Shown here piece by piece: positions 5,052-18,362 of a stretch of DNA of 64,000 nucleotides. This DNA comes from Thermodesulfobacteriota bacterium (lineage in GTDB: Bacteria; Desulfobacterota; Desulfarculia; JACQYL01): assembly GCA_963675595.2 (NCBI GenBank), contig CAXXLZ010000002.1, positions 2,752,001 to 2,816,000 of the forward strand, read 5' to 3'. The first letter of the stretch is position 1, and the number at the start of each line of letters is the position of its first letter. The notes beneath the pieces are model-generated. The model was not told where the DNA came from, made no database searches, and worked only from the letters and a program-made list of their open reading frames with translations. The translations under genes and the position numbers were made by a program.

Positions 5052-6302
5052 TTGAGAAGGACTTGTGCCATTCTGTTGCTGGTACTGACTCTCACATGCG
5101 GAGCCGCCTGGGCCGTTCCCGACGGAATCTGGAAAGACTCGGAGATTTCTCCCACCTACAACTTTTATGTTCAAACCTATGACGAAGCCTCCATGGTCGT
5201 CATCGTATCCAGGGGCGCAGACGAATTTTGGGTCTTCATGGATACGAACTTCTCCGACGGTTTCAGCGCGAATGAGGACATCTCCGGGGCGAACCATCGT
5301 TTGACGATCGTGTTCTCCGACGACGATTCCGCTGTTGCCAAGCTCACCTTCGACGGCGCCGCCGCGGAAACCTACGCCATTACGCGCACCGGCACCGCAC
5401 CCTACCCGACCACCGAAGTAGAGGGGACGCCCCCTTCAGGAAGCGTAACACCGCCGGGATCGCCCGTGAAAGGGGTCATTACCTTGGAGGGCGCCGCGGA
5501 GGACGACGTGGGAATCGACCATGTGGGCATCAAATGCGGAGACGCTCAGGAAGTCGAAGCCTCGTTCAACAAATACGCCGGAACGTTCAGTTACGTATGG
5601 GATACCACCTTCGAAGCCAACGGCGGCCTCACGCTGAAAATCAACGCTTACGACGTCGAAGGGCTGAGTTCGACCATCGCCTGCCTGACGGTGGAGGTGG
5701 ACAACACTTCCAAGCAGGTAAGTCTTCTGCTTCCCGCCGACGGCGACGTGGTTTATCCGCCCTTCAACCTCGACTGGCTCACCATCAGCGACGCCGTCCG
5801 GTATGTGGTTCAGGTGGCGGAAGACGAAGCCTTTGCCAACCTGATCGTCAATCGTGAATGGAGCATTCCTCCGTATACGTTCGCCGACTCCTCCCTTTTC
5901 GAGGGGACCGGCCCTTATTACTGGAGGGTGCGCGCCGTGTTGGATTCCGACGAAATCACTCCCTGGTCCGAAGCGAGGAAATTCTGCGCATCCGGTTCGT
6001 GTGGGTCCGGCGGAGGCGACGAGTTAGCCCAAGTTACGCTGATCACGCCGGACGACGGCGCCTCGGTGAGCGTTCCCGTGAAGATGATCTGGTCACAGGT
6101 TGAAAACGCTTCCGCCTACGAAATCAAAGTCTGTCTCGACGCCCAATGCGGCTTCGTCACTTTGGATCAGGACGACTGGCTCCATCCTTCCATGACCTTT
6201 TATGCAACCTCCGGAGTCGAGTATTACTGGAAAGCGAGGGCGAAGTACGCCGACGGACAGGCGGGCCCGTGGTCCGAGGTCCGGACATATACCACCCAGT
6301 AA
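5052..6302 (+). CDS. Secreted protein: DGxWKD N-terminal domain + Ig-like domain + two FN3-like modules
   Basis: SD (aaggaag) + TTG; signal peptide ending AWA; AEDDVGI...YVWDTT Ig-like module; two LLxPxDG...YYWRV/KA...PWSE repeats. Confidence 0.85.
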   Translation: MRRTCAILLLVLTLTCGAAWAVPDGIWKDSEISPTYNFYVQTYDEASMVVIVSRGADEFWVFMDTNFSDGFSANEDISGANHRLTIVFSDDDSAVAKLTFDGAAAETYAITRTGTAPYPTTEVEGTPPSGSVTPPGSPVKGVITLEGAAEDDVGIDHVGIKCGDAQEVEASFNKYAGTFSYVWDTTFEANGGLTLKINAYDVEGLSSTIACLTVEVDNTSKQVSLLLPADGDVVYPPFNLDWLTISDAVRYVVQVAEDEAFANLIVNREWSIPPYTFADSSLFEGTGPYYWRVRAVLDSDEITPWSEARKFCASGSCGSGGGDELAQVTLITPDDGASVSVPVKMIWSQVENASAYEIKVCLDAQCGFVTLDQDDWLHPSMTFYATSGVEYYWKARAKYADGQAGPWSEVRTYTTQ

Positions 6303-6359
6303 CGGAGGGCGGGGTCCGTGACGATTCGGACAGCCCACACGGAAAAGAGGGAGGACGCC

Positions 6360-7625
6360 ATGAAGAAAGCCGGGATATTTGTTCTGTGTTCCCTTTTTCT
6401 CTTCCTCGGTACGGCGTGGGCCACGCCGGACGGTGTTTGGAAAGACAACCCATCGAACCCCACCTACAATTTTTATGTTCAAACCTACCAGGGCGACTCC
6501 ATGATCGTGATCGTGGCCGCCGGGGTAGCGGATTTCTGGGTGTTTCTCGATTCGAATTACAAAGACGGGTTCACCGCTTCTCAAGACTTGAACGGCGACC
6601 CTCACCAAATCGTGATCAACTTCGCCAGTGATGATGCGGCGGTGGCGACCATCACGTTCCAGGGCTCTTCCGCGGCAAGTTACGCCATATCGAGGACGGT
6701 GCAGGCGCCCGCTTCCAGCTCTGGGGGAAGCGGCACGGGCAATCCGCCCTCCGGAGTTTTGACCGCCCCGTCCGGCGGAGCGAACTTGAGCGGCACCTAC
6801 CTCATCCAGGGCACGGCCACCGACGATGTGGGCGTTCAGAAGGTGGGGATCAAGATCGGAAGCGCCGCCGAGGTCAACGCAGCGTACAATTCGGCCACCA
6901 ACCAGTTCACCTACAGTTGGGACACCACCTCGGTGGCCGACGGCACGACCACGATCCAGGTGACGGTTTACGACACCGAAGGCCTGAACACCGTCATCGC
7001 CGCCATCACCGTTACGGTGAGCAACGGCGGGGGAAGTGGCGGAACCACCGTAAACCTGGTGTATCCGCCCGACGGAAGCACGGGGCTGGTCGCGCCCTTC
7101 GACCTGGAGTGGGACCCCGTGTCCGGAGCGTCCTCCTACCGAATTCAGATTTCCAACGATGCTTTGTTTACCAGCCTGGTGGACGATCGTTTCTGGGCCT
7201 CCACATTTTTCACCGTAACCGGGCTCACGGGCGGGCCTTTCTACTGGCGCGTGTCGGCAATCATCGGCGGCGTCCAGCAATCCTGGTCCAGTGAATGGGA
7301 CTTTTCGGGCACCGGAGGAGGAGGCGGGCCCGTTGTACCACCTCCCTCGGGAACGACCGTCACCCTCCTGACTCCGGCGAACGGAGCCAATGTGTTCTCA
7401 CCGGTGAGCATGACGTGGACGGCCGTCAGCGGCGCCATCGGGTATCATTTACAGATTTGTTATGATTCTTCCTGTTCCATCACCACCTATGACGATACCG
7501 CTTGGCCATACAGCGGCGCTGCGCTGCCGGCATCCCCGGGCACACGCTGGTGGCGAGTGCGCGCCAACCTGGGCGGCGGTGTTTACGGAGCCTGGACTTC
7601 CATCTGGTCTTTTGTGGTCAATTAA
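6360..7625 (+). CDS. Secreted protein, tandem paralog of 5052..6302
   Basis: SD ggagg + ATG; signal peptide ending AWA; same domain order; Gly/Ser-rich linkers. Confidence 0.88.
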   Translation: MKKAGIFVLCSLFLFLGTAWATPDGVWKDNPSNPTYNFYVQTYQGDSMIVIVAAGVADFWVFLDSNYKDGFTASQDLNGDPHQIVINFASDDAAVATITFQGSSAASYAISRTVQAPASSSGGSGTGNPPSGVLTAPSGGANLSGTYLIQGTATDDVGVQKVGIKIGSAAEVNAAYNSATNQFTYSWDTTSVADGTTTIQVTVYDTEGLNTVIAAITVTVSNGGGSGGTTVNLVYPPDGSTGLVAPFDLEWDPVSGASSYRIQISNDALFTSLVDDRFWASTFFTVTGLTGGPFYWRVSAIIGGVQQSWSSEWDFSGTGGGGGPVVPPPSGTTVTLLTPANGANVFSPVSMTWTAVSGAIGYHLQICYDSSCSITTYDDTAWPYSGAALPASPGTRWWRVRANLGGGVYGAWTSIWSFVVN

Positions 7626-7633
7626 GACAACGA

Positions 7634-7659
7634 AGGCGCGGCCGAAACCGGCCGCGCCT
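7634..7659. terminator. Hairpin between convergent genes
   Basis: aggcgcggccg-aaac-cggccgcgcct, perfect 11-bp stem, no clear U tract. Confidence 0.6.
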
Positions 7660-7692
7660 CCCAGTCCTCCGCATCTTTAATCCATCAACTCC

Positions 7693-9195
7693 CTATTTCA
7701 ATCCCATCCCCTCGAGAATTTTTTCCACGTCGCAATGCGCCTCAAAATGTTCGGCCAACTTGTCGTATTGATGAAATCTGCTGAGACGTCCTTTTCCGGG
7801 CCTTTGCTCTTTGAGTCCCTTCTTCTTTCTCAGCTCGTTGAAAATGCGAGCCCGAATCCCCGGTTTGTCGAAAAGCCCGTGCACATAACATCCGAATACC
7901 CGACCGTCGGGTGAGATGAAGCCGTCGTTCCACGTTTCCGACCCTCCGGGTTCCCGGATGGTCAATAAAGGCAAAGCGCCCTCCCCTTCGGAACGCGTGC
8001 GGCCCATATGGATTTCGTATCCGGCCACCTCTTCACCAGAGGGAAGATGGTTTCCGAGGACCCGCCGTACGATCTTGGTTCCCTCCAGAGTCGTGGTCAA
8101 AGGAAGCAAGCCCAAGCCCGGCACTCGCTTGCGGGGGGATTCCACACCCAGAGGGTCGAGGATGGTGGTTCCCAGGAGCTGATAGCCTCCGCAAAGGCCG
8201 ACGATGGGTCCGGGATAGCCCCGAATCTCCCGGCCGAAACCCTCGTTTTCCATCCACACGGCATCTTCCACCACGTTCTTGGTTCCCGGAAGCACCACCA
8301 GATCAAAGGGGGCCAGGTCACGACACCGATGAAGGTAGTGCAGGACCACGTCGGGTTCCTGCTCCAGGCATTCGAGGTCGGTAAAATTGGAGATTCCCGG
8401 AAGGCGGACCACGGCCACGTTGATCTTGTTTTCTTCGATGGGCTGAGTTCGCCTCTTGTCCATTTGAACCGCCACCGAATCTTCCGAATCCACATGGATG
8501 TCCGTGTAGTAGGGCACCAGTCCGAGAACGGGTTTTCGCGTTCGACGTTCGATGAAGTCGATGCCCGAGTCGAAAAGCCGCGGATCACCCCGAAATTTAT
8601 TAATGAGAAATCCCAGCGTCGCTGCTTTCTCTCCGGGAGACATGAGGACGGCGCTTCCCACGACTTGTGCAAAAACGCCGCCGCGGTCGATATCCGCCAC
8701 CAGCACCACGGGTGCTTCGACTTTGCGGGCCATGGCATAGTTCACCAAGTCGTTCTTCTTCAGGTTCATCTCGCAGCAACTTCCCGCCCCCTCCATGACG
8801 ATGACGTCGTGCTGGGCCGCGAGTACCTCGTAGGATTCCAGGACTTTTTGCCGGAGCTTCTTCTTGTAGGTATGATAATCGGCGGCCTCCATCTGCCCGA
8901 ACACCTTCCCCTGCAGGATGATCTGAGCACCCAACCCGGAAGAGGGTTTCAGTAGAATGGGATTCATGTGGATGGAAGGCAACACGCCGGCGGCCTCGGC
9001 CTGAACGATCTGGGCGCGGCCGATTTCGCCGCCTTCCACGGTTACGAATGAGTTGTTGGACATGTTTTGCGCCTTAAAAGGCGCCACACTGAATCCTCGG
9101 TTCTTGAGTATTCGACAGAATGCGGCGGTGACCACCGATTTGCCCACGTCGGAACCGGTTCCAAGGAACATGATGTTTCGAGTCTGTCGATTCAC
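7693..9195 (-). CDS. cobQ: Cobyric acid synthase
   Basis: GTGSDVGKS, PFKAQNMSNNS, EGAGS, DIDRGG, ISNFTD, glutaminase GLCGGYQ and YVHG. Confidence 0.95.
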   Translation of the reverse strand: MNRQTRNIMFLGTGSDVGKSVVTAAFCRILKNRGFSVAPFKAQNMSNNSFVTVEGGEIGRAQIVQAEAAGVLPSIHMNPILLKPSSGLGAQIILQGKVFGQMEAADYHTYKKKLRQKVLESYEVLAAQHDVIVMEGAGSCCEMNLKKNDLVNYAMARKVEAPVVLVADIDRGGVFAQVVGSAVLMSPGEKAATLGFLINKFRGDPRLFDSGIDFIERRTRKPVLGLVPYYTDIHVDSEDSVAVQMDKRRTQPIEENKINVAVVRLPGISNFTDLECLEQEPDVVLHYLHRCRDLAPFDLVVLPGTKNVVEDAVWMENEGFGREIRGYPGPIVGLCGGYQLLGTTILDPLGVESPRKRVPGLGLLPLTTTLEGTKIVRRVLGNHLPSGEEVAGYEIHMGRTRSEGEGALPLLTIREPGGSETWNDGFISPDGRVFGCYVHGLFDKPGIRARIFNELRKKKGLKEQRPGKGRLSRFHQYDKLAEHFEAHCDVEKILEGMGLK

Positions 9196-9202
9196 GTCAT
9201 CC

Positions 9203-10762
9203 TCACGGCTTAAGCAACTTTTCTATATCCAGTCGATCTTGAAAGCGTTTGATGCGCACTTCCGTCGTATCGATAACGGCCACTGCAGGTTTCTCCCGCT
9301 CCAAGTGTACGCGCCACGAATCATGGCCGGAAGGCGGCAGCCCCACCAGAGCCCAATCCTCTCCCGCCGCAGCCACGTGGGAGAAATCGAAAGCCCGCGT
9401 ACTGAGTACCTGCAAATCACTCTCCTCCAATCGGTTGCCGCAGGCAAGCAAAAGATCCGATCCGAGCTTGGAAAAGACGCAGGAGACTTCCGGCTGAAGA
9501 GCCTCATCCACGGAGGCAATTCCCACCCGGGCCGTACCGATGTCCACCAGGGATGTGAGGTCGTCTTCCTCGTGACGACTCGCATCCCAAGGGCAGTGGG
9601 TGTCTCGACGCTTCCGAGCCGAGCCGCCCGGGCGAACCACGAACAGAAGCCTGGTCGCGTGTTCGTTGCTCCCGATGTCGGCGCCCCACGCCAACGCCAG
9701 ATTGAACCGGTACGCCAGTCCCTCCATGTGCTCCATCCAGAAGTCGGCATCGGATTCCGCCTCTACGCAAAACAGAGGGCAAGGCAACACGGCTGTTCCC
9801 ACTTCGGACGGCAAAGAGGAGAGCCTCTTTTCCACCAGTTCGACGGCCTCCCCGGGCGTTCCGCATGTCGGCACGGGAATCGCCGCGACCGTTAAGGGAC
9901 CCGGTTGAGGAAGCTCATAGAAGGAAGTCAGGTCCCTCACCGACCTTAGGTCCAGATATATGGAGTGATAAAGGTCCGGACGGCGCATCTTCTTGAGCGG
10001 AGCCGCTCCGCGAGGCCGGATATTCCCTTTGTGCAGAGGCAGAGAGGCCATGAAGATTCGAGTCTCCGGGTCCGTTTCCTCGACCATTACCTCTCCCCAC
10101 GGCGCATAGATGCCGGAATGGGACAGTCGAGCATCGAGTTGGTCTTCGAAGCCGCCCCGATTGCAGATGGCCAAGTACACTCGGTTTTCCCTGGCCCGTG
10201 CGCGCCAGATTCGACGCGGATCCAAGCCTGTTGTGGGCCAGTTGGCCGGAACCAACACCAGATCCGCACCGCGCACGGCCGTCACTCTGGGAATCAGGCT
10301 GTGATAGGCATCCGAACAGATCAGCAAACCGATGCGCCCCCACGGAGTGGACAATATGTTTTTCTGCTTCACCGCTCCAGGACAGGCCCAACGAATTTCC
10401 GTGTTGATCTTCCGATACCGGAGAGCCGTTTTACCCTCCGGGTCCAACAAGACCGCCGAATTGTAGTAGATTCCGTTACGGGAGGTGACTTCAGGAAGCC
10501 CGACGGCGATATAAACACCTAGCCTCCGGGCCGTTTCGGCAAAAGCTCCCGTGGTGGGGCCGGGGACTTCTTCCACGAACGGTGCGACTTCTTTCCGGCT
10601 CTTAAAAGTATACCCGGTGGTAGCCAATTCCGTGTTCACGATGATATTCGCACCCGCCGAAGCCGCCTCTTCGTTCAATCGCAAAAGGGTCCGAATGTTT
10701 TCTTCGGGCTTTCGATGTTCGGGAGCAAAATGGACGAGCGCAATCTTCAGAAAATCAGCCAT
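9203..10762 (-). CDS. Carbon-nitrogen hydrolase (nitrilase family) with a long C-terminal extension
   Basis: E-K-C triad: NTELATTGY, YRKIN, LICSD; C-terminal half looks like a degenerate second domain. Confidence 0.85.
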   Translation of the reverse strand: MADFLKIALVHFAPEHRKPEENIRTLLRLNEEAASAGANIIVNTELATTGYTFKSRKEVAPFVEEVPGPTTGAFAETARRLGVYIAVGLPEVTSRNGIYYNSAVLLDPEGKTALRYRKINTEIRWACPGAVKQKNILSTPWGRIGLLICSDAYHSLIPRVTAVRGADLVLVPANWPTTGLDPRRIWRARARENRVYLAICNRGGFEDQLDARLSHSGIYAPWGEVMVEETDPETRIFMASLPLHKGNIRPRGAAPLKKMRRPDLYHSIYLDLRSVRDLTSFYELPQPGPLTVAAIPVPTCGTPGEAVELVEKRLSSLPSEVGTAVLPCPLFCVEAESDADFWMEHMEGLAYRFNLALAWGADIGSNEHATRLLFVVRPGGSARKRRDTHCPWDASRHEEDDLTSLVDIGTARVGIASVDEALQPEVSCVFSKLGSDLLLACGNRLEESDLQVLSTRAFDFSHVAAAGEDWALVGLPPSGHDSWRVHLEREKPAVAVIDTTEVRIKRFQDRLDIEKLLKP

Positions 10763-10969
10763 GGCAATCGAGGTGGAAAGCGAAACATTCGACGGCACCA
10801 AACAGTGTCGCCAAAGCGCGTGAAGGTTGGGTTTTGATTACGACCGACAGCGGACGCGAGTCGCAATGGTCACACGATTTCACGAATCACCGAGCGAAAA
10901 AAACAAGGCGTCTTCCAGGCGGGAATCCTCGATCGACCCGTCGCGAATTTATCCCGGACTCGGCGGACG

Positions 10970-11773
10970 TCACGACGCACCGGAAAGTCCGAAAAACCCG
11001 GCGGCGTTCTCGTACCCGAGGCGGGTCTTCCATTCTGCCGGAGTCTCGGGGTCTCTGAGAAACCGGACCTCGTCCTCGTGGAATTTCCCATTGGAATCCG
11101 TGTTGAGCATAAGCCGGTGCAAGGCTTGGGGATGCGCCCGCAGCATCTCGTGGACATCAGAAGGACGACATTTGATGCCCGATAGGGTGACCCCGGCCCA
11201 GTAGCCTCGTTCAAGAACCGATCCCAGGGTCTCGGGGACCAAATGGTCCACCACGATGCGCTCCGGATCCAAACCGGAACGATCCAGGATACCCAGAATC
11301 TCACCGGTAATCCGAGGCTTTTCTTTTCGAGGGGTATGCACACAGATACTAAGTCGGTCCCGTGGTGCGGCCGCATCCAAATGAGTCTGAAAAACAAGAC
11401 GCTCCAATTCGTCGCCCGTTTCCAGACCGATTTCTCCAACACCCAGGAAAAAGGGATCCTCAGCGGATTTCGTGAACAATTCCTCCAGAAAACGACGCAA
11501 GTTCTCCTCGCCGAAAGGCTCCGATGGAATGCAACGAGGGTGGATTCCCTCCACGTGATAGGCATGGAGGCCCTGAGCCCTCAGGTCCCTTACCAGGGCC
11601 GCATGCGCGTCGACGTAAGAGCCCGCTTCTTCCAGGGTGGTCGCCCCCTCACAGAACGCCCAGGAAACCACCGATACACCGTGTGATTTCAGCCATTGCG
11701 CCCGTTCGGGCCGACTCTCTACAATAAAATCAAGGTGAGCGTGGGAGTCGATAATGGGAGGCTCAGCGATCAC
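10970..11773 (-). CDS. TatD-family metallohydrolase
   Basis: IIDSHAHLD, GIHP, VGEIGLE, VHTPR, VVDH, LNTD. Confidence 0.85.
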   Translation of the reverse strand: MIAEPPIIDSHAHLDFIVESRPERAQWLKSHGVSVVSWAFCEGATTLEEAGSYVDAHAALVRDLRAQGLHAYHVEGIHPRCIPSEPFGEENLRRFLEELFTKSAEDPFFLGVGEIGLETGDELERLVFQTHLDAAAPRDRLSICVHTPRKEKPRITGEILGILDRSGLDPERIVVDHLVPETLGSVLERGYWAGVTLSGIKCRPSDVHEMLRAHPQALHRLMLNTDSNGKFHEDEVRFLRDPETPAEWKTRLGYENAAGFFGLSGAS

Positions 11774-14700
11774 TTGCGGCCCCCAAAGATTTCTCCGCCC
11801 TTAGGGCCTCAAGCGAAGCCTTTCCGTGAGCTCCGATGCTTTTAAGTGGGACTCCGCCCATGGAGGCGTCGGAATCATCGGACGAACCCGAGGCCAGGTC
11901 GATCAGTTCATCCACAGGGAAGTCGGCCAAGGTGCTCTCGCCATTGCCGATCACCACACGTTCGGGAAGGGAGGAGATGGGATAGAAGCCGAAAGCTTCT
12001 CCCTCATCGTCTATGTATCCGTTTCCGTTTCGATCCGTGCCCGCGGCCACGATGTAATTGCCCGCGGCGAGATGGGTCATGGCATAAGCGTAGTCCCCCG
12101 CCTTAAATACGAGGGCGACCTTCTGAGTGCTCAGGGTCAGAGGATCCACCGCCAGCACGTAAACCGGGCCCACATCGCCTCGACTCTCAGAGACCACGTC
12201 CTGCTTCTCCATGAGCACGGGGGCCTCCACGCTGCCGGAGGCCGGGGACTGCGCGGTGACGACGATCTTACCGCTGTAGGAACCGTCTTCAACAAGGGAT
12301 CTGTCCACCATGACCACGATTTCGGCGTCTTCGGCATCGGAAGTACCCACGCGCCCCTGGGTCTTGTCCACGGAAAGCCACGCATCCCCGTCCACGGTCA
12401 CCGTGAAATCGAACTCCCCGGAGGGATCGGTTCCTCCCACGTTGAGGACGGTGAGCACCAGCGCGGTTTTTTCCGTGCCGAAATTCAGGCTGGCGGGGTT
12501 CAAATCGGGAACGGGCACGCCCGACGAACCTGAGCCCGAGGCAAACTGCACGGCTGAAGACGCATCGATCAGGCCGTAGCCGAAGGTGGTGTCGTGCCCG
12601 GTCGAACCAAGGTCTTGGGTCAAGTATCCTTGGGCCAACCAGGTGTCGAATTGCTGAGGTGTAAATTTGTTCCCGGCGTGATCGGACATATAGGCCGCCT
12701 GCATGAGCGCGACCACGCCCGCGACGTGAGGGGTTGCCATGGAGGTACCTTGATACCGGCCGTAGGTGTAACCGATGGTCCCCTGGGAATCGTCTCCCAG
12801 GGTGGACAATACACCGTCGCTGAAACCGTCTCCGTTAAGGTCCGCGGAAGTATCGCCTCCCGGAGCGGCCACGTCCACCACCTGCCCATAATTGCTGTAA
12901 TATGCCTTCTTTTTGTCCAGATCCACCGCGGACACGGCGACGACTCCATCAACATTTGCGGGGACATATCCGCCGGCGTCGGCATTGTTGTTTCCAGCCG
13001 CGGCCACGACGACCACGCCGGCGCCACGTAGATCGTCGACCCCGCTCTGAAGCAGGTTGGAAGTCCCCGCACCGCCCAGGCTCATGTTGACCACGTCGGC
13101 CCGACGAGACGGAAGGGTTCCTGAATCGTTGGAAAGCCTCGCCGCGTAACGCATGGCCTGATAGATATCGTAGATGGTGCCTCCCTCGATACCCAGAACC
13201 CGAAGGTTCATGATCATACAGGAGTGGTCCACGCCGGCGACTCCGACTCCGTTGTCCGACGCGGCGCCCACGGTACCCGCCACATGGGTTCCATGGAACG
13301 AGGAAACACCGCTCGCGGCGTCTCCCGGGTCCGTGGGATCCGGGTCGATCCCGTCCCCGTCCCCTGCCGATCCGACGTTGCTGATGAAATCATACCCGGG
13401 CATGAACCGGGAAGAATCGAAGTCGGGGTGTTCCATCAGGATGCCCGTGTCCAGAACGGCCACCACGACTTCCCCGCTGCCGCGCGTCACGTTCCATGCC
13501 AGGGGAAGATTGACCAGGGGGTAATGCCATTGGTAGGTGTAATAGGGATCGTCGGGAAGGAATGACGGTCTGAGGATGTAGTTCGGTTCGGCCCACAGCA
13601 CATCGGATCGCGCTTTGAGCGCCTCGATTCTCTCGATGGTTTTCTCCCGGGACCGCTTCTTTCCCTCTTCCGCCAATGCGCTCACTCCCTCGGTTTCCAT
13701 GCCCGAAAACCGCACTAACGAGGGGCGTTGATCGACGTTCCCATGCGGGAGCAGGATGTCGGAAGTCGACTCCAAATTCAATGTCGTGGCGCCCTGCCGG
13801 AATCGCACAACCGCTTCGCCGGGCACGAATTCGGCTTCATCCGGAATGCTCTCGGAGCCTCCCACCGTTGCGGTCTGCCCCACGATGAGTGTGTAATTGG
13901 AGGACGCCCCGAAAAACCCCTGAATCGGTTCCACCCAGATGTAGGCCTCTCCGGTTTGGGTAGTGGTGGAAACTTGTTTGACTTTGTCGGATCCCGTGCT
14001 CGGAGAAACGATTTCGGATCCGCTCTCGTCCAACAAATGCAGATCCAACCTAAGATTGTCCGGGTCGGCGGTCACCAAAGCAACATACACCGGCCGGCCG
14101 GTGAGCTGAATTCGATAATAATCCTCATCGTAATTGAAGGGGCCGTACCGATTGGACCATCCGCCCACCGTGGCGGGCACGGAGATTTCCTGCGCCGTGG
14201 AGAGAGAATCGTTATCCCCTTGTTGATAGGGATCATTGGTATCCCAATCCGTATAAGCATCGGAGGCCATCGTCAGTTCACCCACCAAGTCCCCGTCGGC
14301 GGGCTCGACGGTGCTTCCGGGCGCCGTGAAAACGCGGTGCAGCTCCCCTTCACCCGAGGCGGAGCTTCCGGTTACCGGAAGGTCCCATGCGGCGGAGATT
14401 CCCAAAGGGTCAAGAGAATACTCCATCGACAGAATCCCGCCTTCTCCTGTGAGATCCTCTGCGTAAAACCCGTCCGAAACGGATGAATCCAAGAAAGCGA
14501 AAGTGGTATTGCACGAAGTCTCCCGCAGGACCACCAGACCCGAACCCGTATCGTAGTGTTGTACGTACAGGTTGACGTGGATGTCGTCGCCCGACTGCCC
14601 GTCTTTCCAGAGACCGCCGAATCCGGGAGCTTCGGGAACATCGAACCATTTGTAGATGGAGGAGTCCTCCACCGGGTTTCCCTGCACTGAAAGGGACGCG

Positions 14701-15044
14701 GCAGCCTCCTCCTGATCGAAGAACACCACGGTAAGATGATGACCGTTTCCGTCCACATCCTCCACATCGATGCCGTCGGAGTAGTCCTCGTCCAGAAAAA
14801 CGTAGAATTCTTCAAGGTTGGTGGTGGCTACGACAATGGCCGAGCCTTCTTCATAGGTCTGAATGAAGTAGTTTATGGATGGGGAGGCAGAGCCGGGTCG
14901 GACGTCTTTCCAAATTCCATCGAAAGCGGCCTGCACGGGCCCAATGAAAAACAGGAATAGAAAAAGAATGACGGATGAAGTAAACCAGCGAATCCGCGTT
15001 CCGTGTTCCATGGCCTGTGTCCTCCCAACCGCCTGCAAACCCAT
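11763..15044 (-). CDS. Secreted S8 (subtilisin-like) serine protease with tandem DGxWKD N-terminal domains and accessory beta-sandwich domains
   Basis: Triad VLDTG / HGTHVAGT / GTSMATPHVAG, oxyanion AAGNN; signal peptide ending VQA. Confidence 0.93.
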   Translation of the reverse strand: MGLQAVGRTQAMEHGTRIRWFTSSVILFLFLFFIGPVQAAFDGIWKDVRPGSASPSINYFIQTYEEGSAIVVATTNLEEFYVFLDEDYSDGIDVEDVDGNGHHLTVVFFDQEEAAASLSVQGNPVEDSSIYKWFDVPEAPGFGGLWKDGQSGDDIHVNLYVQHYDTGSGLVVLRETSCNTTFAFLDSSVSDGFYAEDLTGEGGILSMEYSLDPLGISAAWDLPVTGSSASGEGELHRVFTAPGSTVEPADGDLVGELTMASDAYTDWDTNDPYQQGDNDSLSTAQEISVPATVGGWSNRYGPFNYDEDYYRIQLTGRPVYVALVTADPDNLRLDLHLLDESGSEIVSPSTGSDKVKQVSTTTQTGEAYIWVEPIQGFFGASSNYTLIVGQTATVGGSESIPDEAEFVPGEAVVRFRQGATTLNLESTSDILLPHGNVDQRPSLVRFSGMETEGVSALAEEGKKRSREKTIERIEALKARSDVLWAEPNYILRPSFLPDDPYYTYQWHYPLVNLPLAWNVTRGSGEVVVAVLDTGILMEHPDFDSSRFMPGYDFISNVGSAGDGDGIDPDPTDPGDAASGVSSFHGTHVAGTVGAASDNGVGVAGVDHSCMIMNLRVLGIEGGTIYDIYQAMRYAARLSNDSGTLPSRRADVVNMSLGGAGTSNLLQSGVDDLRGAGVVVVAAAGNNNADAGGYVPANVDGVVAVSAVDLDKKKAYYSNYGQVVDVAAPGGDTSADLNGDGFSDGVLSTLGDDSQGTIGYTYGRYQGTSMATPHVAGVVALMQAAYMSDHAGNKFTPQQFDTWLAQGYLTQDLGSTGHDTTFGYGLIDASSAVQFASGSGSSGVPVPDLNPASLNFGTEKTALVLTVLNVGGTDPSGEFDFTVTVDGDAWLSVDKTQGRVGTSDAEDAEIVVMVDRSLVEDGSYSGKIVVTAQSPASGSVEAPVLMEKQDVVSESRGDVGPVYVLAVDPLTLSTQKVALVFKAGDYAYAMTHLAAGNYIVAAGTDRNGNGYIDDEGEAFGFYPISSLPERVVIGNGESTLADFPVDELIDLASGSSDDSDASMGGVPLKSIGAHGKASLEALRAEKSLGAASDR

Positions 15045-15047
15045 GCC

Positions 15048-15815
15048 TTAGAAGCTGACGGTAATACCCGCGAACGGGCCCGCCAAGTCGTAGTCCTGAT
15101 CGAGTCCGTCGGATTCCAGATCAACACTCAAGAAGCGATATCCGAGCCCCAAATCCATAAAGGCAAAAGGAGTTAGAGAGACTTCCGCTATGGCGTCCAC
15201 CAAGTGTTCATCCGAAGCCCAGTATCCCCCTCCTTTCAGGCGAACCTCAAGAACATCCGCTAGAAATCCGAGGTGAAGCTGCAATCCTCCGAGGGGACGA
15301 ATCCAGGAGAAGTCGATGTCTCCTTTTTGGCTCCCGCTCTCTATGCTCATGTTTCCCGTTTGGTATCTTCCGGCCAGAAAGACGTCCAGAGAAAATCCCG
15401 CGAGTATGTTTTCGAGGTCGAGTAGGGTAAAGGAGTATTCCATCTCCAACATGGTCCACTGGAGATTGGAATCCAATTGAGCATCCGAGGCAAAAGACTC
15501 CCCCGCGAACTGCAGGGATTTACCGGGCCTGTGCGTTTCCGATTGATCGAAGTAAGTGATGCCGAAGGAAAAATGATGCCGACCGATTCCAACGAAGGCC
15601 TCACCGAAAGGGACCCAGGAATATCCGAAATCCAGGTCGTCCTGAAGGTTGAGCACGGAACCCGTATCGCCGTTATTGCCTTGAATTTGCCCGTCGACAT
15701 TGGCGAGCCACAAATGGCCTCTGACTCCCACGTCGAAAGCGTGACTTGTGGATGTCAAAACGAAGAGACACATCCCGATAGTACAAACCCAACGCAACAT
15801 TTCCACTCTTCTCAT
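15048..15815 (-). CDS. Outer-membrane beta-barrel protein (TIGR04219-like)
   Basis: Signal peptide ending SHA, amphipathic strands, LGYR motif, C-terminal GPFAGITVSF. Confidence 0.8.
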   Translation of the reverse strand: MRRVEMLRWVCTIGMCLFVLTSTSHAFDVGVRGHLWLANVDGQIQGNNGDTGSVLNLQDDLDFGYSWVPFGEAFVGIGRHHFSFGITYFDQSETHRPGKSLQFAGESFASDAQLDSNLQWTMLEMEYSFTLLDLENILAGFSLDVFLAGRYQTGNMSIESGSQKGDIDFSWIRPLGGLQLHLGFLADVLEVRLKGGGYWASDEHLVDAIAEVSLTPFAFMDLGLGYRFLSVDLESDGLDQDYDLAGPFAGITVSF

Positions 15816-16098: not shown

Positions 16099-17661
16099 GT
16101 GCAAACCCAAGGAGCCCCCGCACAGCCAATGCGTCATCCAATCCTTGGAACGGCCTTCGTTTGCCTTTGCCTCTCCCTGATTTTTTCCTGGCTACTCGGG
16201 TACCTGCTCGTTGTAGAAAGCGACCGATCGCTTCTGTTCAAGAAAGAGCTCCTATCGGAAAGCCGTTATCCTTTTGTCCCCGGACCCGAGATGGAAATGG
16301 AATTCAGATCCGGAAAGGCCGCTCTCGCCGCCGCTCTGCCGTATGCGGCGACTTTGGGGGTGGGCCTGCCGGCCCTGTTGCTCCCTTTGACCCTGCTGAT
16401 TCGGCGTCGCAACTTCGGAGGCAAATATGTCCCCGCTCTTTCGGTGTCCGCCCTCATGCTGCTCGGCTTCAATCTTGAGGGCTTCCGACCATGGGAGAGC
16501 TTATACGCCTTGGGCACGGGAGGCTGGCTCGCGCTTTGGATTTCCGGAAGATGCAATCCGCAAAGCGACTTCGGGCCGGACCGCACGGCGATTTTCGGAA
16601 TTACCGGAGCGGCCCTTCTCATCGTCTTCGTATGCTGCGGCACCGGAATCCGTGACTTCAAAGCGCTGAGGGATGCCGTGTTGTTGAGCAACGCACCGGG
16701 TACCACCCTGTGCGACCTGTATTATCATTACACCTTGGCGGCGGCCGAACCGTTGAAACCTCCTTGGGAGAAGACTCAGCCCATCGCTCTCTTGCAGACC
16801 AAGGGATTCACCGGCCCAATGATGGATATTGTTCTACGACAGGCGGAGGCGGAAGGCGTGATTCCGCTGAAGACGTCCGAGTCGGAGGTCCCGCCCGGAG
16901 TCGACTGGGTCGTTTCCACGCAAGGCGGAGAGCTCATGATCCGACGCGCACACGGCTGGAGCGGCCGTCACTTCCTTTTCCCCGCTCCGAGCATCAAGGA
17001 TCGTCGCCTGTTCAGCGATGAAAAGTCGCTCACCTCCTGGTTGGGCTTGAGGTCATGGCTCAAATTGAGCGTGACCGTAGGACTGCCGACGGCGATTCTC
17101 TGGTTGCTTTCCTTCATGCTCCGTAGATTCGTGGGTCGGACTACCCGATGGGCGGGGGCGAAGAGCCCCACCCCGGGAGATTTCCTGCTCATCATTTCAG
17201 GCCTCGGAGCCGCGGTCCTGTTCTATTTGAACCCGTTTCCGACCGACCCGGCGGAGCTGCTGCGCCGCGCGGAAAGTCAAGAAGGCTGGGCCCGAGTGCG
17301 CGCCTTGCGCGCCCTCGCCGAGCAAAATTCAGAGCCCCTCTCCGGAGACTTTCTCATCAGGTTTCTCACGAGTCACGACCCGCGACTTCGATATTGGGCT
17401 GCGATCGCCGTCATCGGAGGCGGGGGACCCGACCTGCGAAAGGCCTTGATTGAAAACCTCGACTCTCCCCAAGTTCATGTGGCCGCAGCCTCCGCATCCG
17501 CGCTTGCACGTTTCAAAGAACCTCCCTTCGTCGCCCTCGCATCGGCCTTTCATTCCCAGGCTCGTTGGTACCTCCGTGAAACGATTTATCGGATATTCCG
17601 GAAACACGACGGGAAACCTCCGCTTCTCTTCCTTTCTCCGTCTCAGGACGATTCCACATGA
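16099..17661 (+). CDS. Membrane protein with C-terminal HEAT-like repeats
   Basis: Multiple TM segments; RVRALRALA, DPRLRYWAAIA, VHVAAASASALA repeats. Confidence 0.7.
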   Translation: MQTQGAPAQPMRHPILGTAFVCLCLSLIFSWLLGYLLVVESDRSLLFKKELLSESRYPFVPGPEMEMEFRSGKAALAAALPYAATLGVGLPALLLPLTLLIRRRNFGGKYVPALSVSALMLLGFNLEGFRPWESLYALGTGGWLALWISGRCNPQSDFGPDRTAIFGITGAALLIVFVCCGTGIRDFKALRDAVLLSNAPGTTLCDLYYHYTLAAAEPLKPPWEKTQPIALLQTKGFTGPMMDIVLRQAEAEGVIPLKTSESEVPPGVDWVVSTQGGELMIRRAHGWSGRHFLFPAPSIKDRRLFSDEKSLTSWLGLRSWLKLSVTVGLPTAILWLLSFMLRRFVGRTTRWAGAKSPTPGDFLLIISGLGAAVLFYLNPFPTDPAELLRRAESQEGWARVRALRALAEQNSEPLSGDFLIRFLTSHDPRLRYWAAIAVIGGGGPDLRKALIENLDSPQVHVAAASASALARFKEPPFVALASAFHSQARWYLRETIYRIFRKHDGKPPLLFLSPSQDDST

Positions 17662-18362
17662 CAAACGAAGCGCCAAAACGGCAGAGGGGGGGCGGTTCGC
17701 TTGGATTGCCCGTCGCCCTGGGACTGCTTTCCGCTGCAGCGCTGATCGAGTGGTGTTGGTCTCGATGGGCCCCGACACTCCTTCCCACGATTTCGGCGAA
17801 CGCGATCCTCTCCACCGCCCTGGTACGGATCACGGATATTCTGCTGGTTGTGCTCTTCTTGAAAAGATCCGGCGGATCCTGGGAAACGGTGGGACTCGGA
17901 CGTAAGCCGGCCGCCGAAGGTTTGCGAACCGGGTTGATCTGGTGTGTGATCTTGGGGTTGGGCGCCCTTGGAATCGGCGCGGTATATGGGCTGGTATACG
18001 GAGCCCCTCCCCGCCTGTTTTCTCCGCTGCACCGACCCTGGTTCGTCCCCTCCCCGCTGGGATGGTGTTATCTTGCGACCACCGCCCTGCTGAGCCCCGC
18101 GGCGGAAGAACTGATCTTTCGCGGTGTTTTTTACAACGCGTTACGATCCAGGATGTCCGTCCCCTCGGCAATTCTCCTATCCGTTTCGATTTTCGCGGCG
18201 GCGCACGGTTCGGACTGGACGCGCATCCTTCCGGCCGCCGTTGGAGGTCTGATATTCAGCTTGGCCTTCGAGAAAACCCGAAGCCTGTGGACGCCGCTGC
18301 TCATCCACTCGGTGGGAAACACCGCCCTCTGGCTCTATGGGTGGATTACTTTAATGGAATGA
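17658..18362 (+). CDS. CPBP (CAAX/Abi) family intramembrane glutamic endopeptidase
   Basis: AEELIFRG, FAAAH, HSVGN motifs; ATGA overlap with upstream gene. Confidence 0.9.
   Translation: MTNEAPKRQRGGGSLGLPVALGLLSAAALIEWCWSRWAPTLLPTISANAILSTALVRITDILLVVLFLKRSGGSWETVGLGRKPAAEGLRTGLIWCVILGLGALGIGAVYGLVYGAPPRLFSPLHRPWFVPSPLGWCYLATTALLSPAAEELIFRGVFYNALRSRMSVPSAILLSVSIFAAAHGSDWTRILPAAVGGLIFSLAFEKTRSLWTPLLIHSVGNTALWLYGWITLME

Follow-up and report, generated by a model that had tools for sequence, protein, structure and literature searches.

Single modules shared by a large set of an organism's genes have in the past led to the dockerin/cohesin, SLH, PEP-CTERM/exosortase, T9SS C-terminal domain and T11SS barrel systems. 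Dockerins are helical, EF-hand-like Ca2+ units of ~70 aa, duplicated, portable and mostly terminal, which bind cohesins, and the Slam/T11SS cargo barrel of Proteobacteria is thought to direct the transfer of folded periplasmic proteins to the cell surface. Barrels of the D-aminopeptidase (DAP) type are fixed in one enzyme family, where they gate the active site, and the calycins are defined by a G-x-W motif. As described for diderms, Slam/T11SS cargo carries soluble, 8-stranded barrels once or twice per exported protein (PMC5449769, PMC12282271), with diverse effector domains fused to a C-terminal or central barrel of this type (PMC12282271), while the account of the T9SS C-terminal domain (Por_Secre_tail) of Bacteroidota is that of a beta-rich unit of ~80-100 aa, common to many secreted proteins of a lineage, which routes them through the outer membrane and onto the surface (PMC4804311). 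Based on sequence profiles, genome comparisons and structure models, we propose, with a probability of roughly 45%, that the predicted double barrel presented here is a portable handle that keeps exported proteins at a site which they share in the cell envelope or matrix.

The window, i.e. the whole stretch of 64,000 nucleotides that was analysed, contains four copies of the module on three genes. Gene A (5052..6302, + strand) is a 416-aa ORF composed of a signal peptide, one module copy (5118..5402, +; aa 23-117; hmmsearch E 5e-45), a Pro/Thr/Ser linker, a Big_7 Ig domain (aa 134-196, Pfam E 3.5e-6) and two Ig/FN3-like repeats. Gene B (6318..7625, +; 435 aa as the longest ORF, with the Met at aa 15 as the likely true start) has the same layout, including its single copy (6426..6710, +; aa 37-131; hmmsearch E 2e-44). 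Gene C (11763..15044, - strand; 1093-aa ORF) combines a signal peptide and a tandem module pair (copy 1, 14634..14924, -, aa 41-137, hmmsearch E 7e-42; copy 2, 14319..14621, -, aa 142-242, hmmsearch E 5e-35) with a long linker region, Peptidase_S8, and BACON-like and C-terminal beta-rich parts. Its subtilase (S8) catalytic domain (12573..13472, -; PF00082 at aa 525-824, E 1.4e-46) lies outside the module and is cargo. In agreement with the sequence-only reading, which had recognised one domain in four copies, these align over 110 columns, with 55, 41 and 36% identity to copy 1 of the alignment and 17 invariant columns (G W K D .. N .. Q. Y .. S .. V .. F. D .. D G .. D .. G). Genes A and B are full-length paralogues of each other (39% identity, E 6e-100), and the description as otherwise unrelated thus applies to gene C only. 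The module copies of all three begin 1-2 residues past the predicted A-x-A signal-peptidase site, as read from the sequence. The signal peptide of gene A contains a Cys (LTLTC), with a Thr at -1, which we take to mean that there is no canonical lipobox; none of the three proteins has a hydrophobic C-terminal tail, and the earlier statement that they lack a C-terminal TM sorting signal thus stands.

A profile built from the four copies reached far beyond these three proteins and onto diverse cargo, yielding 121 further or identical genome matches at E <= 0.01. The family in this 6.8-Mb genome amounts to 123 copies of ~95-100 aa on 72 ORFs, and the best non-member after iteration is at E = 0.54 only, so that the similarity is not due to chance. 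Two copies in tight tandem are present in 51 of the 72 ORFs and one copy in 21; this usual pairing had been overlooked before. Across databases, the module is lineage-restricted and uncatalogued, as supposed earlier when no named family was recognised. Pfam returned 0 families for the four window copies at E <= 10, and in none of the 72 carriers, searched over their full length, does the module coincide with the best stretch of a family; no NCBIfam family matched more than 3 of the 123 copies (best E 0.0023), and a PDB sequence search reached E 0.82 at best. In the ESM Atlas, both the module (best score 0.88) and the cargo of one carrier that lacks a Pfam family (L073; 0.89) stayed below the lead level of 0.9, and a search of genome contigs gave 46 pattern matches, of which 0 were confirmed. 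A homologue search with a 150-aa stand-alone module protein recovered only the protein itself and one relative, both unnamed, and ten representative protein clusters held 1-7 members each under uninformative names. Keyword searches of the literature gave no description of the module, although an unnamed domain is hardly searchable by words and may well have been published. World-wide, the family comprises 218 of 1.84 billion representative proteins; the profile accordingly annotates 200-odd 'hypothetical' proteins and flags them as exported.

The module is N-terminal in ~25, C-terminal in ~31, internal in 12 and alone in 4 of the 72 ORFs, and its earlier designation as an N-terminal domain therefore has to be abandoned. 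Among the best 150 proteins world-wide, 64 carry it C-terminally, 52 N-terminally and 10 internally, and 24 are stand-alone. N-terminal modules directly follow the signal peptide (26 of 29 start at most 6 aa from a small-x-small site) and C-terminal ones occupy the extreme end, with Pro/Thr/Ser linkers coming after modules. A signal-like hydrophobic N-terminus was detected in 60 of 72 carriers using a crude regular expression, a lipobox-like signal in 5 of 72 only. In the carrier L045, which contains a methyltransferase domain, a signal peptide is not visible. Judging from the signal-peptide-like N-termini, the carriers are presumably exported. Their cargo includes peptidases (S8, C1, C13, M12, trypsin), six FGE-sulfatase-domain proteins, esterases, GSDH, transglutaminase, PIG-L and PEBP, and further lectin/CBM96, NHL, RCC1, PKD and CarboxypepD_reg repeats; in 22 of 72 carriers a Pfam family is absent altogether. 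The idea of a portable module fused to unrelated exported cargo, put forward from the window alone, is hence well founded across the 72 ORFs, where two S8 peptidases bear the module at opposite ends, N-terminally in gene C and C-terminally in L050. Orthologues of gene C in two relatives (G001 and G002) have kept the N-terminal pair. As the module is placed at either end of ~70 different exported proteins, it probably represents a shared address or anchor.

Module-bearing paralogues exist for 32 of 72 cargos, indicating that part of the family expansion is plain gene duplication. Module-free paralogues were found for 8 of 72, two pairs being 66-67% identical, and such recent paralogues with and without module therefore imply that its gain or loss concerned one functional unit. 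We envisage that gene shuffling would attach the barrel pair to the free end of an exported protein, so that it either follows the Sec signal peptide directly or forms the final ~100-200 residues. After export, the double barrel would act as a common non-covalent handle, through which enzymes and adhesin-like proteins might be held at one site, for instance on a scaffold protein, a polymer of the surface or some component of the outer membrane, with binding that is probably cation-assisted. Such a handle is suggested by the cargo diversity, the copy number and the terminal, but end-independent, position, by the export signals, the movement as a pair and the many-or-none distribution (see below), by cargo that can do without the module, as in the module-free paralogues, and by the acidity of every copy with its conserved Asp loop. 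Against it speak the carrier that lacks a visible signal peptide and the 24 of 150 proteins consisting of the module only, which would be needless for a pure anchor.

The AlphaFold2 model of the module (gene A, aa 22-115; pLDDT 96.7) has eight strands in sequence order and no helix of at least 4 residues according to DSSP. This confident model, combined with weak fold matches, suggests an 8-stranded antiparallel up-and-down beta-barrel of the calycin/avidin type, compatible with the 'calycin-like' guess made from the sequence. The top Foldseek rows are all calycins, at TM 0.45-0.59, with a best E of 0.046 and none at E <= 0.001, and the top VIA Z of 9.5 exceeds only slightly the 7-8 typically obtained for unmatched models. 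Like the lipocalins and other calycins, the module shares the 8-stranded up-and-down barrel and the G-x-W in the first strand (G 100% and W 79% conserved across 319 distinct copies); however, these proteins have a C-terminal helix packed on the barrel, whereas the modelled module has no helix and is only 94 aa long. The best VIA match is D-aminopeptidase DAP (1ei5_A; Z 9.5, with 73 residues superimposed at an rmsd of 1.9 A and 11% identity), in which barrels B and C are accessory barrels on a hydrolase. Accessory in the same way are the lipocalin-like domains at the C-termini of PBP-type esterases and thioesterases (IS11 and SurE, both at Z 6.7, and Rv0907). Unlike the barrels of DAP and the esterases, the module moves between unrelated cargos, and there is no sequence similarity to them. 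Named calycin-barrel likenesses are further provided by Treponema Tp0751 (Z 9.0, 88 residues aligned), the avidins (Z 8.4-8.5) and Bacteroides BT_2261 (Z 8.0), BACUNI_03039 and BACEGG_00036. Calycin-like proteins are stand-alone binders, in contrast to the module as a tandem terminal unit on multidomain proteins.

The fold matches include lipocalins, avidins, the Tp0751 adhesin and lipocalin-like proteins of Bacteroides that bind lipids and sugars, which brings up a different role, namely that of a substrate- or ligand-binding module, lectin/CBM-like or for small molecules. Secreted enzymes would then be delivered to a particle or polymer outside the cell and not to the cell's own surface. Many carbohydrate-binding modules are terminal and arranged in tandem, similar to the terminal tandems found here, and the 24 of 150 module-only proteins would fit soluble lectins. 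However, it is not carbohydrate-active enzymes that dominate the cargo but peptidases, adhesin-type repeats and FGE-sulfatase domains, conservation is lowest in the loops where the barrel is presumed to be open, and 94 aa presumably leave scant room for a cavity, making us doubt this explanation. The conserved residues (among them columns G2, W4, Y14, Q16, Y18, G21, S22, D39 and F62) appear to be located in the strands and in the loops at the barrel end that bears the termini, with the most variable loops at the opposite end. Because the best-conserved residues, assigned by strand order, are in strands and termini-end loops, a conserved binding face is not evident, which also weighs against the proposed handle.

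The usual unit is modelled as two barrels packed head to tail without a linker (pTM 0.83 for the gene C pair). Copy-to-copy spacing is uniform, with a median of 100 aa (IQR 98-101, 160 proteins), in 72 of 102 cases a copy is closest to the one that has the corresponding position in a different protein, and the pairing is retained across three bacterial families. With the tandem model, all matches in Foldseek and VIA were to individual barrels; among chains covering both of them, 3rby ranks first (Z 6.3, rmsd 4.4). In a FastTree phylogeny of 151 copies, which is weak, being unrooted and based on an 86-column alignment, all 28 copies from the two other families fall into one clade of 30 leaves. 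Due to this single outside-family clade in a weak tree, the split between copy 1 and copy 2 cannot be dated before the separation of the lineages.

Every copy is acidic, with a median net charge of -8, and copies of the window's bacterial family share a conserved D-x-D-x-x-D-G loop. Per 100 aa, the charge is -9.0 for the module, -0.4 for the proteome and -6.3 for the rest of the carrier proteins; since the remainder of the carriers is acidic too, acidity is not peculiar to the module and loses weight as an argument for a handle. A further possibility is self-association, where barrels would bind to those of other proteins, with Ca2+ as a possible bridge, and cross-link their carriers into a coat or matrix. 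Avidin-type barrels oligomerise, two barrels per protein would permit chains or networks, and acidic copies with conserved Asp loops are compatible with bridging; yet the packing of the two barrels within one protein may use up the self-interface, and we judge this scenario very improbable. As a small acidic, probably Ca2+-dependent module on tens of unrelated secreted proteins, duplicated and mostly terminal, the module resembles dockerins, from which it differs in being a predicted all-beta barrel pair of ~200 aa on cargo that is not cellulolytic; a scaffold resembling cohesins was not noticed. Identity with a dockerin was rejected, as the model is all-beta and no carrier has a Pfam dockerin match.

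Other known sorting signals were likewise set aside. In the T9SS, the domain occurs once per protein and always at the C-terminus, whereas the module is found at either terminus or internally and mostly comes in pairs, and TIGR04183 gave 0 matches in the genome (with a silent control). A tail of the PEP-CTERM type, made up of a motif, a transmembrane helix and a basic end, is not compatible with carrier C-termini that are devoid of a hydrophobic tail; of the 2 PEP-CTERM matches in the genome, neither falls on a carrier.

Cargo of the Slam/T11SS systems (TbpB, LbpB, fHbp, HpuA, haemophilin) resembles the module in that one or two soluble barrels of 8 strands are joined to varied effectors. By analogy, the barrels could form an outer-membrane translocation tag, recognised by a translocon or by type II secretion, that moves folded periplasmic proteins to the surface. 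Fold class, copy number and the many-or-none phyletic pattern are as in T11SS cargo, and NHBA, fHbp, a haemophore and TbpB are among the VIA matches (Z 7.5 to 6.1), although ranking below generic barrels. A GspD-type secretin above the curated cut-off is found in 8 of 8 module-positive genomes compared to 11 of 38 module-negative relatives; owing to these 11 genomes, type II secretins are not specific to carriers. The host itself, a diderm, has type II secretins, and a periplasmic site is possible, which argues against a handle at the envelope surface or matrix. While the T11SS barrel is C-terminal or central, the module is, apart from 31 C-terminal and 12 internal cases, also N-terminal in 25, i.e. 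about as often as C-terminal. Moreover, it has no Pfam sequence match to the TbpBBD or lipoprotein C domain families, and its carriers are mostly not lipoproteins, in line with the few lipobox-like signals, and far more numerous per genome than T11SS cargo. SlipAM/DUF560 (PF04575) gave no match in six module-positive genomes (G000, G001, G002, G048, G064 and G158), a weak point as none of the 14 control genomes was matched either. Taken together, translocation by such a tag seems unlikely to us.

The check for co-occurring genes, proposed along with the original observation, did not reveal a partner: within 6 kb of module genes no gene family recurs, only repeat elements, ABC ATPases and regulators. 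A 255-aa OMP-barrel-like gene (15048..15815, -), without Pfam match, is located 3 nt upstream of gene C, and its orthologues in G001 and G002 are directly upstream of the module-S8 orthologue. It is, however, single-copy in the genome and found only in the window's bacterial family, and is hence rejected as a general partner; it is a conserved partner gene of the S8 protease C only. Giant proteins with 193-aa repeats beside two carriers were dismissed as well, being restricted to this genome (0 of 40 relatives, 0 of 5 other carrier genomes). That no neighbour recurs, and that both candidates are too restricted, counts against a handle with a dedicated partner.

With regard to distribution, all three genomes of the window's bacterial family are positive (123, 84 and 38 matches), while 0 of 38 genomes from sister families have the module. 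Two other families contribute five genomes with 20-40 matches each, and none was found in the remaining 395 of a phylum sample of 400 genomes. The range thus covers three bacterial families of one phylum, always with 20-123 copies per carrier genome, a many-or-none pattern that, by analogy, would be typical of sorting or anchoring systems. The empty partner search, conserved residues that look structural and the 32 of 72 cargos with module-bearing paralogues would also suit a passive structural element, i.e. a solubility, folding or spacer domain without specific partner that was duplicated within one lineage. Such an element is difficult to reconcile with the many unrelated cargo families and the use of both ends, with a pair kept over three bacterial families, and with recent paralogues that differ in having the module, and we consider it highly improbable.

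A portable handle remains our preferred explanation; the most novel alternative, which we regard as quite unlikely, is that the double barrel marks cargo for a pathway of secretion or surface display that has not been described so far, in a non-proteobacterial diderm lineage. In that case, an outer-membrane component would recognise the barrel pair at either cargo end, and the pathway, with its own tag and its own translocon or receptor, would be a functional parallel to T11SS/Slam, handling ~1% of the proteome. Irrespective of function, ~1% of the organism's genes (72 ORFs) share one uncatalogued module. If a partner is found, a ~200-aa handle usable at either protein end may become a surface-display tool. 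Defined by boundaries, a profile and a confidently predicted fold, the tag offers a way into the exoproteome organisation of a little-studied lineage. Members of this lineage are seen mostly in sediment and mat metagenomes.

The window encodes three proteins that share a module of ~95-100 residues, namely those of gene A (5052-6302, + strand, 416-aa ORF), gene B (6318-7625, + strand, 435-aa ORF) and gene C (11763-15044, - strand, 1093-aa ORF), the last with two copies. The four copies align across 110 columns, 17 of which are invariant, the other three being 55, 41 and 36% identical to that of A, and a profile built from them recovers all four (E between 5e-45 and 5e-35) at residues 23-117 of A, 37-131 of B, and 41-137 and 142-242 of C, confirming the sequence-only reading that the same domain is present throughout. 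That reading had also described the S8 protease as otherwise unrelated to its companions. This holds for gene C, a subtilase (Pfam Peptidase_S8 at aa 525-824, E 1.4e-46) that has only the module in common with A and B, while A and B are themselves full-length paralogues (39% identity along the full length, E 6e-100), in which the module is followed by a Big_7 Ig domain and then two Ig/FN3-like repeats. In all three proteins the module starts 1-2 residues past an A-x-A site ending a signal-peptide-like segment; their C-termini are free of hydrophobic tails, in agreement with the earlier statement that a C-terminal transmembrane sorting signal is absent.

Applied to the whole genome (6.79 Mb, three contigs), the four-copy profile yields 121 matches at E <= 0.01. 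Iterated hmmsearch of 35,809 ORFs of at least 60 aa, taken from the longest start with no gene caller, converges on 123 module copies on 72 ORFs, two per carrier in 51 and one in 21, hence far beyond the three window proteins. A clear gap separates the family from all other ORFs, the best non-member reaching only E = 0.54. Pfam gives no match to the four window copies even at E <= 10, and on the 72 whole carriers no Pfam family has its best stretch on the module; among the 123 copies no NCBIfam family occurs in more than three (best E 0.0023), and a profile search of PDB sequences reaches E 0.82 at best. The proposal that the domain has no named family is thus upheld: the sequence family is absent from every library searched here, and what has precedents is its class of fold and the broader concept of terminal modules that are portable.

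AlphaFold2, supplied with the alignment of all 123 copies, models residues 22-115 of A with high confidence (pLDDT 96.7, pTM 0.88) as a helix-free fold whose eight strands follow one another in sequence order. Judging from the strand order, conservation would be highest in the strands and in the loops of the barrel end where both termini sit, and lowest in the loops opposite. Foldseek of this model against the PDB returns nothing at E <= 0.001, and its best rows are all calycins (E 0.046-0.2, TM 0.45-0.59), comprising tear lipocalin, nitrophorins, beta-lactoglobulin, odorant-binding protein, FABP/CRABP and Bacteroides lipocalin-like proteins. An exhaustive VIA search finds 10 chains with Z >= 8, among them the barrel domain of D-aminopeptidase 1ei5 (Z 9.5, rmsd 1.9 over 73 residues), designed 8-stranded barrels (Z 9.4 and 9.3), Cap15 (Z 9.2), Tp0751 (Z 9.0, 88 residues aligned) and avidins (Z 8.4-8.5), followed by BT_2261 (8.0), PliC (7.6), NHBA (7.5), fHbp (6.6) and TbpB (6.1). 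As Z 7-8 is typical of models without a true match, the module is best regarded as a generic small up-and-down calycin/avidin-type barrel and not as a member of any single family, and it is as such a generic type that the earlier guess of a calycin-like barrel agrees with the model. The tandem of C (aa 40-262, modelled from a 51-row alignment of the tandem unit) is predicted as two such barrels with the last dozen residues disordered (pLDDT 88.4, pTM 0.83); solved structures match either single barrel, never the whole pair.

The description as an N-terminal domain proved too narrow. With positions assigned by a crude signal-peptide regex and longest-ORF starts, the module lies right behind the signal peptide in 25 carriers of this genome, at the extreme C-terminus in 31 and internally in 12, the remaining 4 consisting of little beyond the module; the best 150 proteins world-wide, which include 41 of this genome's own, divide into 64 C-terminal, 52 N-terminal, 24 stand-alone and 10 internal cases, and 107 of them have two copies. 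In 26 of 29 cases an N-terminal module begins no more than 6 residues from a small-x-small site; after a C-terminal module just 3-25 residues remain, as a rule with an [FY]-x-[AP]-P-[DE]-like motif, which also occurs after the second copy of N-terminal pairs and therefore marks the true end of the module unit. Equivalent positions in the tandem are spaced by a median of 100 aa (IQR 98-101, 160 distinct tandem proteins), and in 72 of 102 cases a copy has its closest relative at the same position in another protein; by these sequence comparisons, the two tandem copies behave as one unit. The module is acidic in all 123 copies (median net charge -8), with -9.0 charges per 100 aa compared to -6.3 for the remainder of the carriers and a proteome median of -0.4.

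That the module is portable among diverse cargo is borne out by the 72 carriers, which include peptidases (two S8, two C1, three C13, one trypsin-like, one M12), six FGE-sulfatase-domain proteins, two esterases, single cases of glucose/sorbosone dehydrogenase, transglutaminase, PIG-L deacetylase and PEBP, proteins with Laminin_G_3, C-type-lectin/CBM96, or NHL and RCC1 propellers, a beta-helix protein, an arylsulfotransferase-like protein and many PKD/CarboxypepD_reg repeat proteins; 22 of the 72 have no Pfam family (E <= 1e-4). Even within one enzyme family the module occupies opposite ends, being N-terminal in the S8 peptidase of gene C and C-terminal in that of locus L050. Cargo from other genomes, scanned for 61 of the 109 foreign proteins among the best 150 (mainly short ones were omitted), adds C11 and C25 peptidases, LRR, Somatomedin_B and chitobiase-type domains, with no family at E <= 1e-10 in 29 of the 61. 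Module-less paralogues exist in the same genome for 8 of the 72 cargos, two of them at 66-67% identity, indicating that the module is gained or lost as a unit, and module-bearing paralogues exist for 32, so that part of the expansion is ordinary duplication. The densest cluster holds five module genes within 20 kb (C1:165699-185528), four large PKD/CarboxypepD_reg paralogues (1072-1590 aa) and a 100-aa fragment. Many PKD/CarboxypepD_reg carriers share a second recurrent terminal element, the C-terminal motif W-S-G-x-V-T-P-S-x-x-G-x-x-F-x-P-x-S-x-x-Y ... Q-x-x-Q-D-[FY], seen in loci L031-L034, L054, L057 and L088. The sole carrier that looks cytoplasmic is L045 (G000:C1:1196991-1198184), a 397-aa ORF that combines a SAM-methyltransferase domain with a C-terminal module and shows no signal peptide.

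The 123-copy profile matches 218 of 1,835,955,588 representative proteins at E <= 0.001, 187 at <= 1e-10 and 89 at <= 1e-30; ten clusters that were looked up have 1-7 members each, from metagenome collections and with no usable names. All three genomes of the window's family contain the module (123, 84 and 38 matches), and none of 38 genomes from sister families that share its order and class does. Of 400 further genomes sampled evenly across the phylum, only those of two families contain it, f15 (4/4) and f31 (1/1), and the remaining 395 give no match; full scoring gives 20, 40, 32 and 40 matches in the f15 genomes (61-79% complete) and 20 in that of f31. The carriers of these two families obey the same rules, with a tandem pair after the signal peptide or C-terminal and Thr/Pro-rich linkers, on cargo that, read from sequence, includes a HEMGH metallopeptidase, a papain-like peptidase, and BNR-like and BACON-like repeats. 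The positions conserved in every one of the three families are G2, W4, Y14, Q16, Y18, G21, [SG]22, T28, D30, D39 and F62, and only the window's family typically has a D-x-D-x-x-D-G loop.

The module is compact and terminus-independent, is found on ~1% of genes, is joined to unrelated and, by crude signal-peptide recognition, putatively exported proteins for which it is dispensable, and is either present tens of times in a genome or missing altogether. Together these traits point to an address that its carriers share, and away from a catalytic role or one tied to particular cargo, as is characteristic of portable modules for anchoring, docking or sorting. As the likeliest role, with a probability of roughly 45%, we propose non-covalent retention of the carriers at one site of the envelope or matrix that they have in common. 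The module's placement at both protein ends as well as internally is usual for anchors, SLH and dockerin among them, and unusual for threaded export signals. Counted against it are the module-only proteins, the misfit of L045, the putative status of any conserved binding face and of export itself, and the search for a binding partner among carrier neighbours, which found none; self-association of the modules we hold to be very improbable, and a passive structural element marginally more so. The main competing explanation, a tag for outer-membrane translocation, draws on Slam/T11SS cargo of Proteobacteria, which likewise has one or two soluble 8-stranded barrels in common, thought to steer it to the translocon (PMC5449769, PMC12282271). 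However, half of the modules are N-terminal, and no SlipAM homologue is found in six carrier genomes, in a search that is silent in the control genomes too. Such a tag is held to be unlikely, and a substrate- or ligand-binding unit equally so. GspD-type secretins above the curated cut-off occur in 8/8 carrier genomes, with two in that of the window, and also in 11/38 non-carriers.

Genes A and B are preceded by an ABC/FtsX-MacB pair and a CrtC-type lipocalin gene and followed by a convergent cobQ (stop 7693; B stop 7625), and a 13-bp GC-rich hairpin between the two stops (7632-7661) is probably a bidirectional terminator. Located 3 nt upstream of gene C, an outer-membrane-barrel-like gene (15048-15815, - strand, 255 aa, no Pfam match, ending ...GITVSF) is single-copy in this genome, and in the other two genera of the family (G001:C104, G002:C14) its orthologues lie directly upstream of the orthologous module-S8 gene; a sister-family genome and two carrier genomes of the f15/f31 type gave no match to it. 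This restricted occurrence ties it to protease C, of which it may be the membrane partner, and not to the module generally. Just past this pair are a 520-aa membrane protein with HEAT repeats (16099-17661, +) and, overlapping its end by 4 nt, a CPBP/Rce1-like intramembrane protease gene (17658-18362, +).

Genome-wide, carrier neighbours include no recurring gene family except repeat elements, ABC ATPases and regulators. Giant proteins of 2371 and 2725 aa without a Pfam match flank two module/FGE-sulfatase genes (G000:C2:942923-963038; loci L115, L116, L061 and L062); their repeat is a ~193-aa helical, Glu/Lys/Ala-rich unit in 21 copies, 52-100% identical, found in 0/40 relatives and 0/5 other carrier genomes. 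Another repeat element, marked by a 589-aa ORF, has nine copies in the genome (e.g. C2:1197302-1199071), five of which lie within 6 kb of module genes compared to 12.6% of the genome being so close, and it may contribute to module shuffling.
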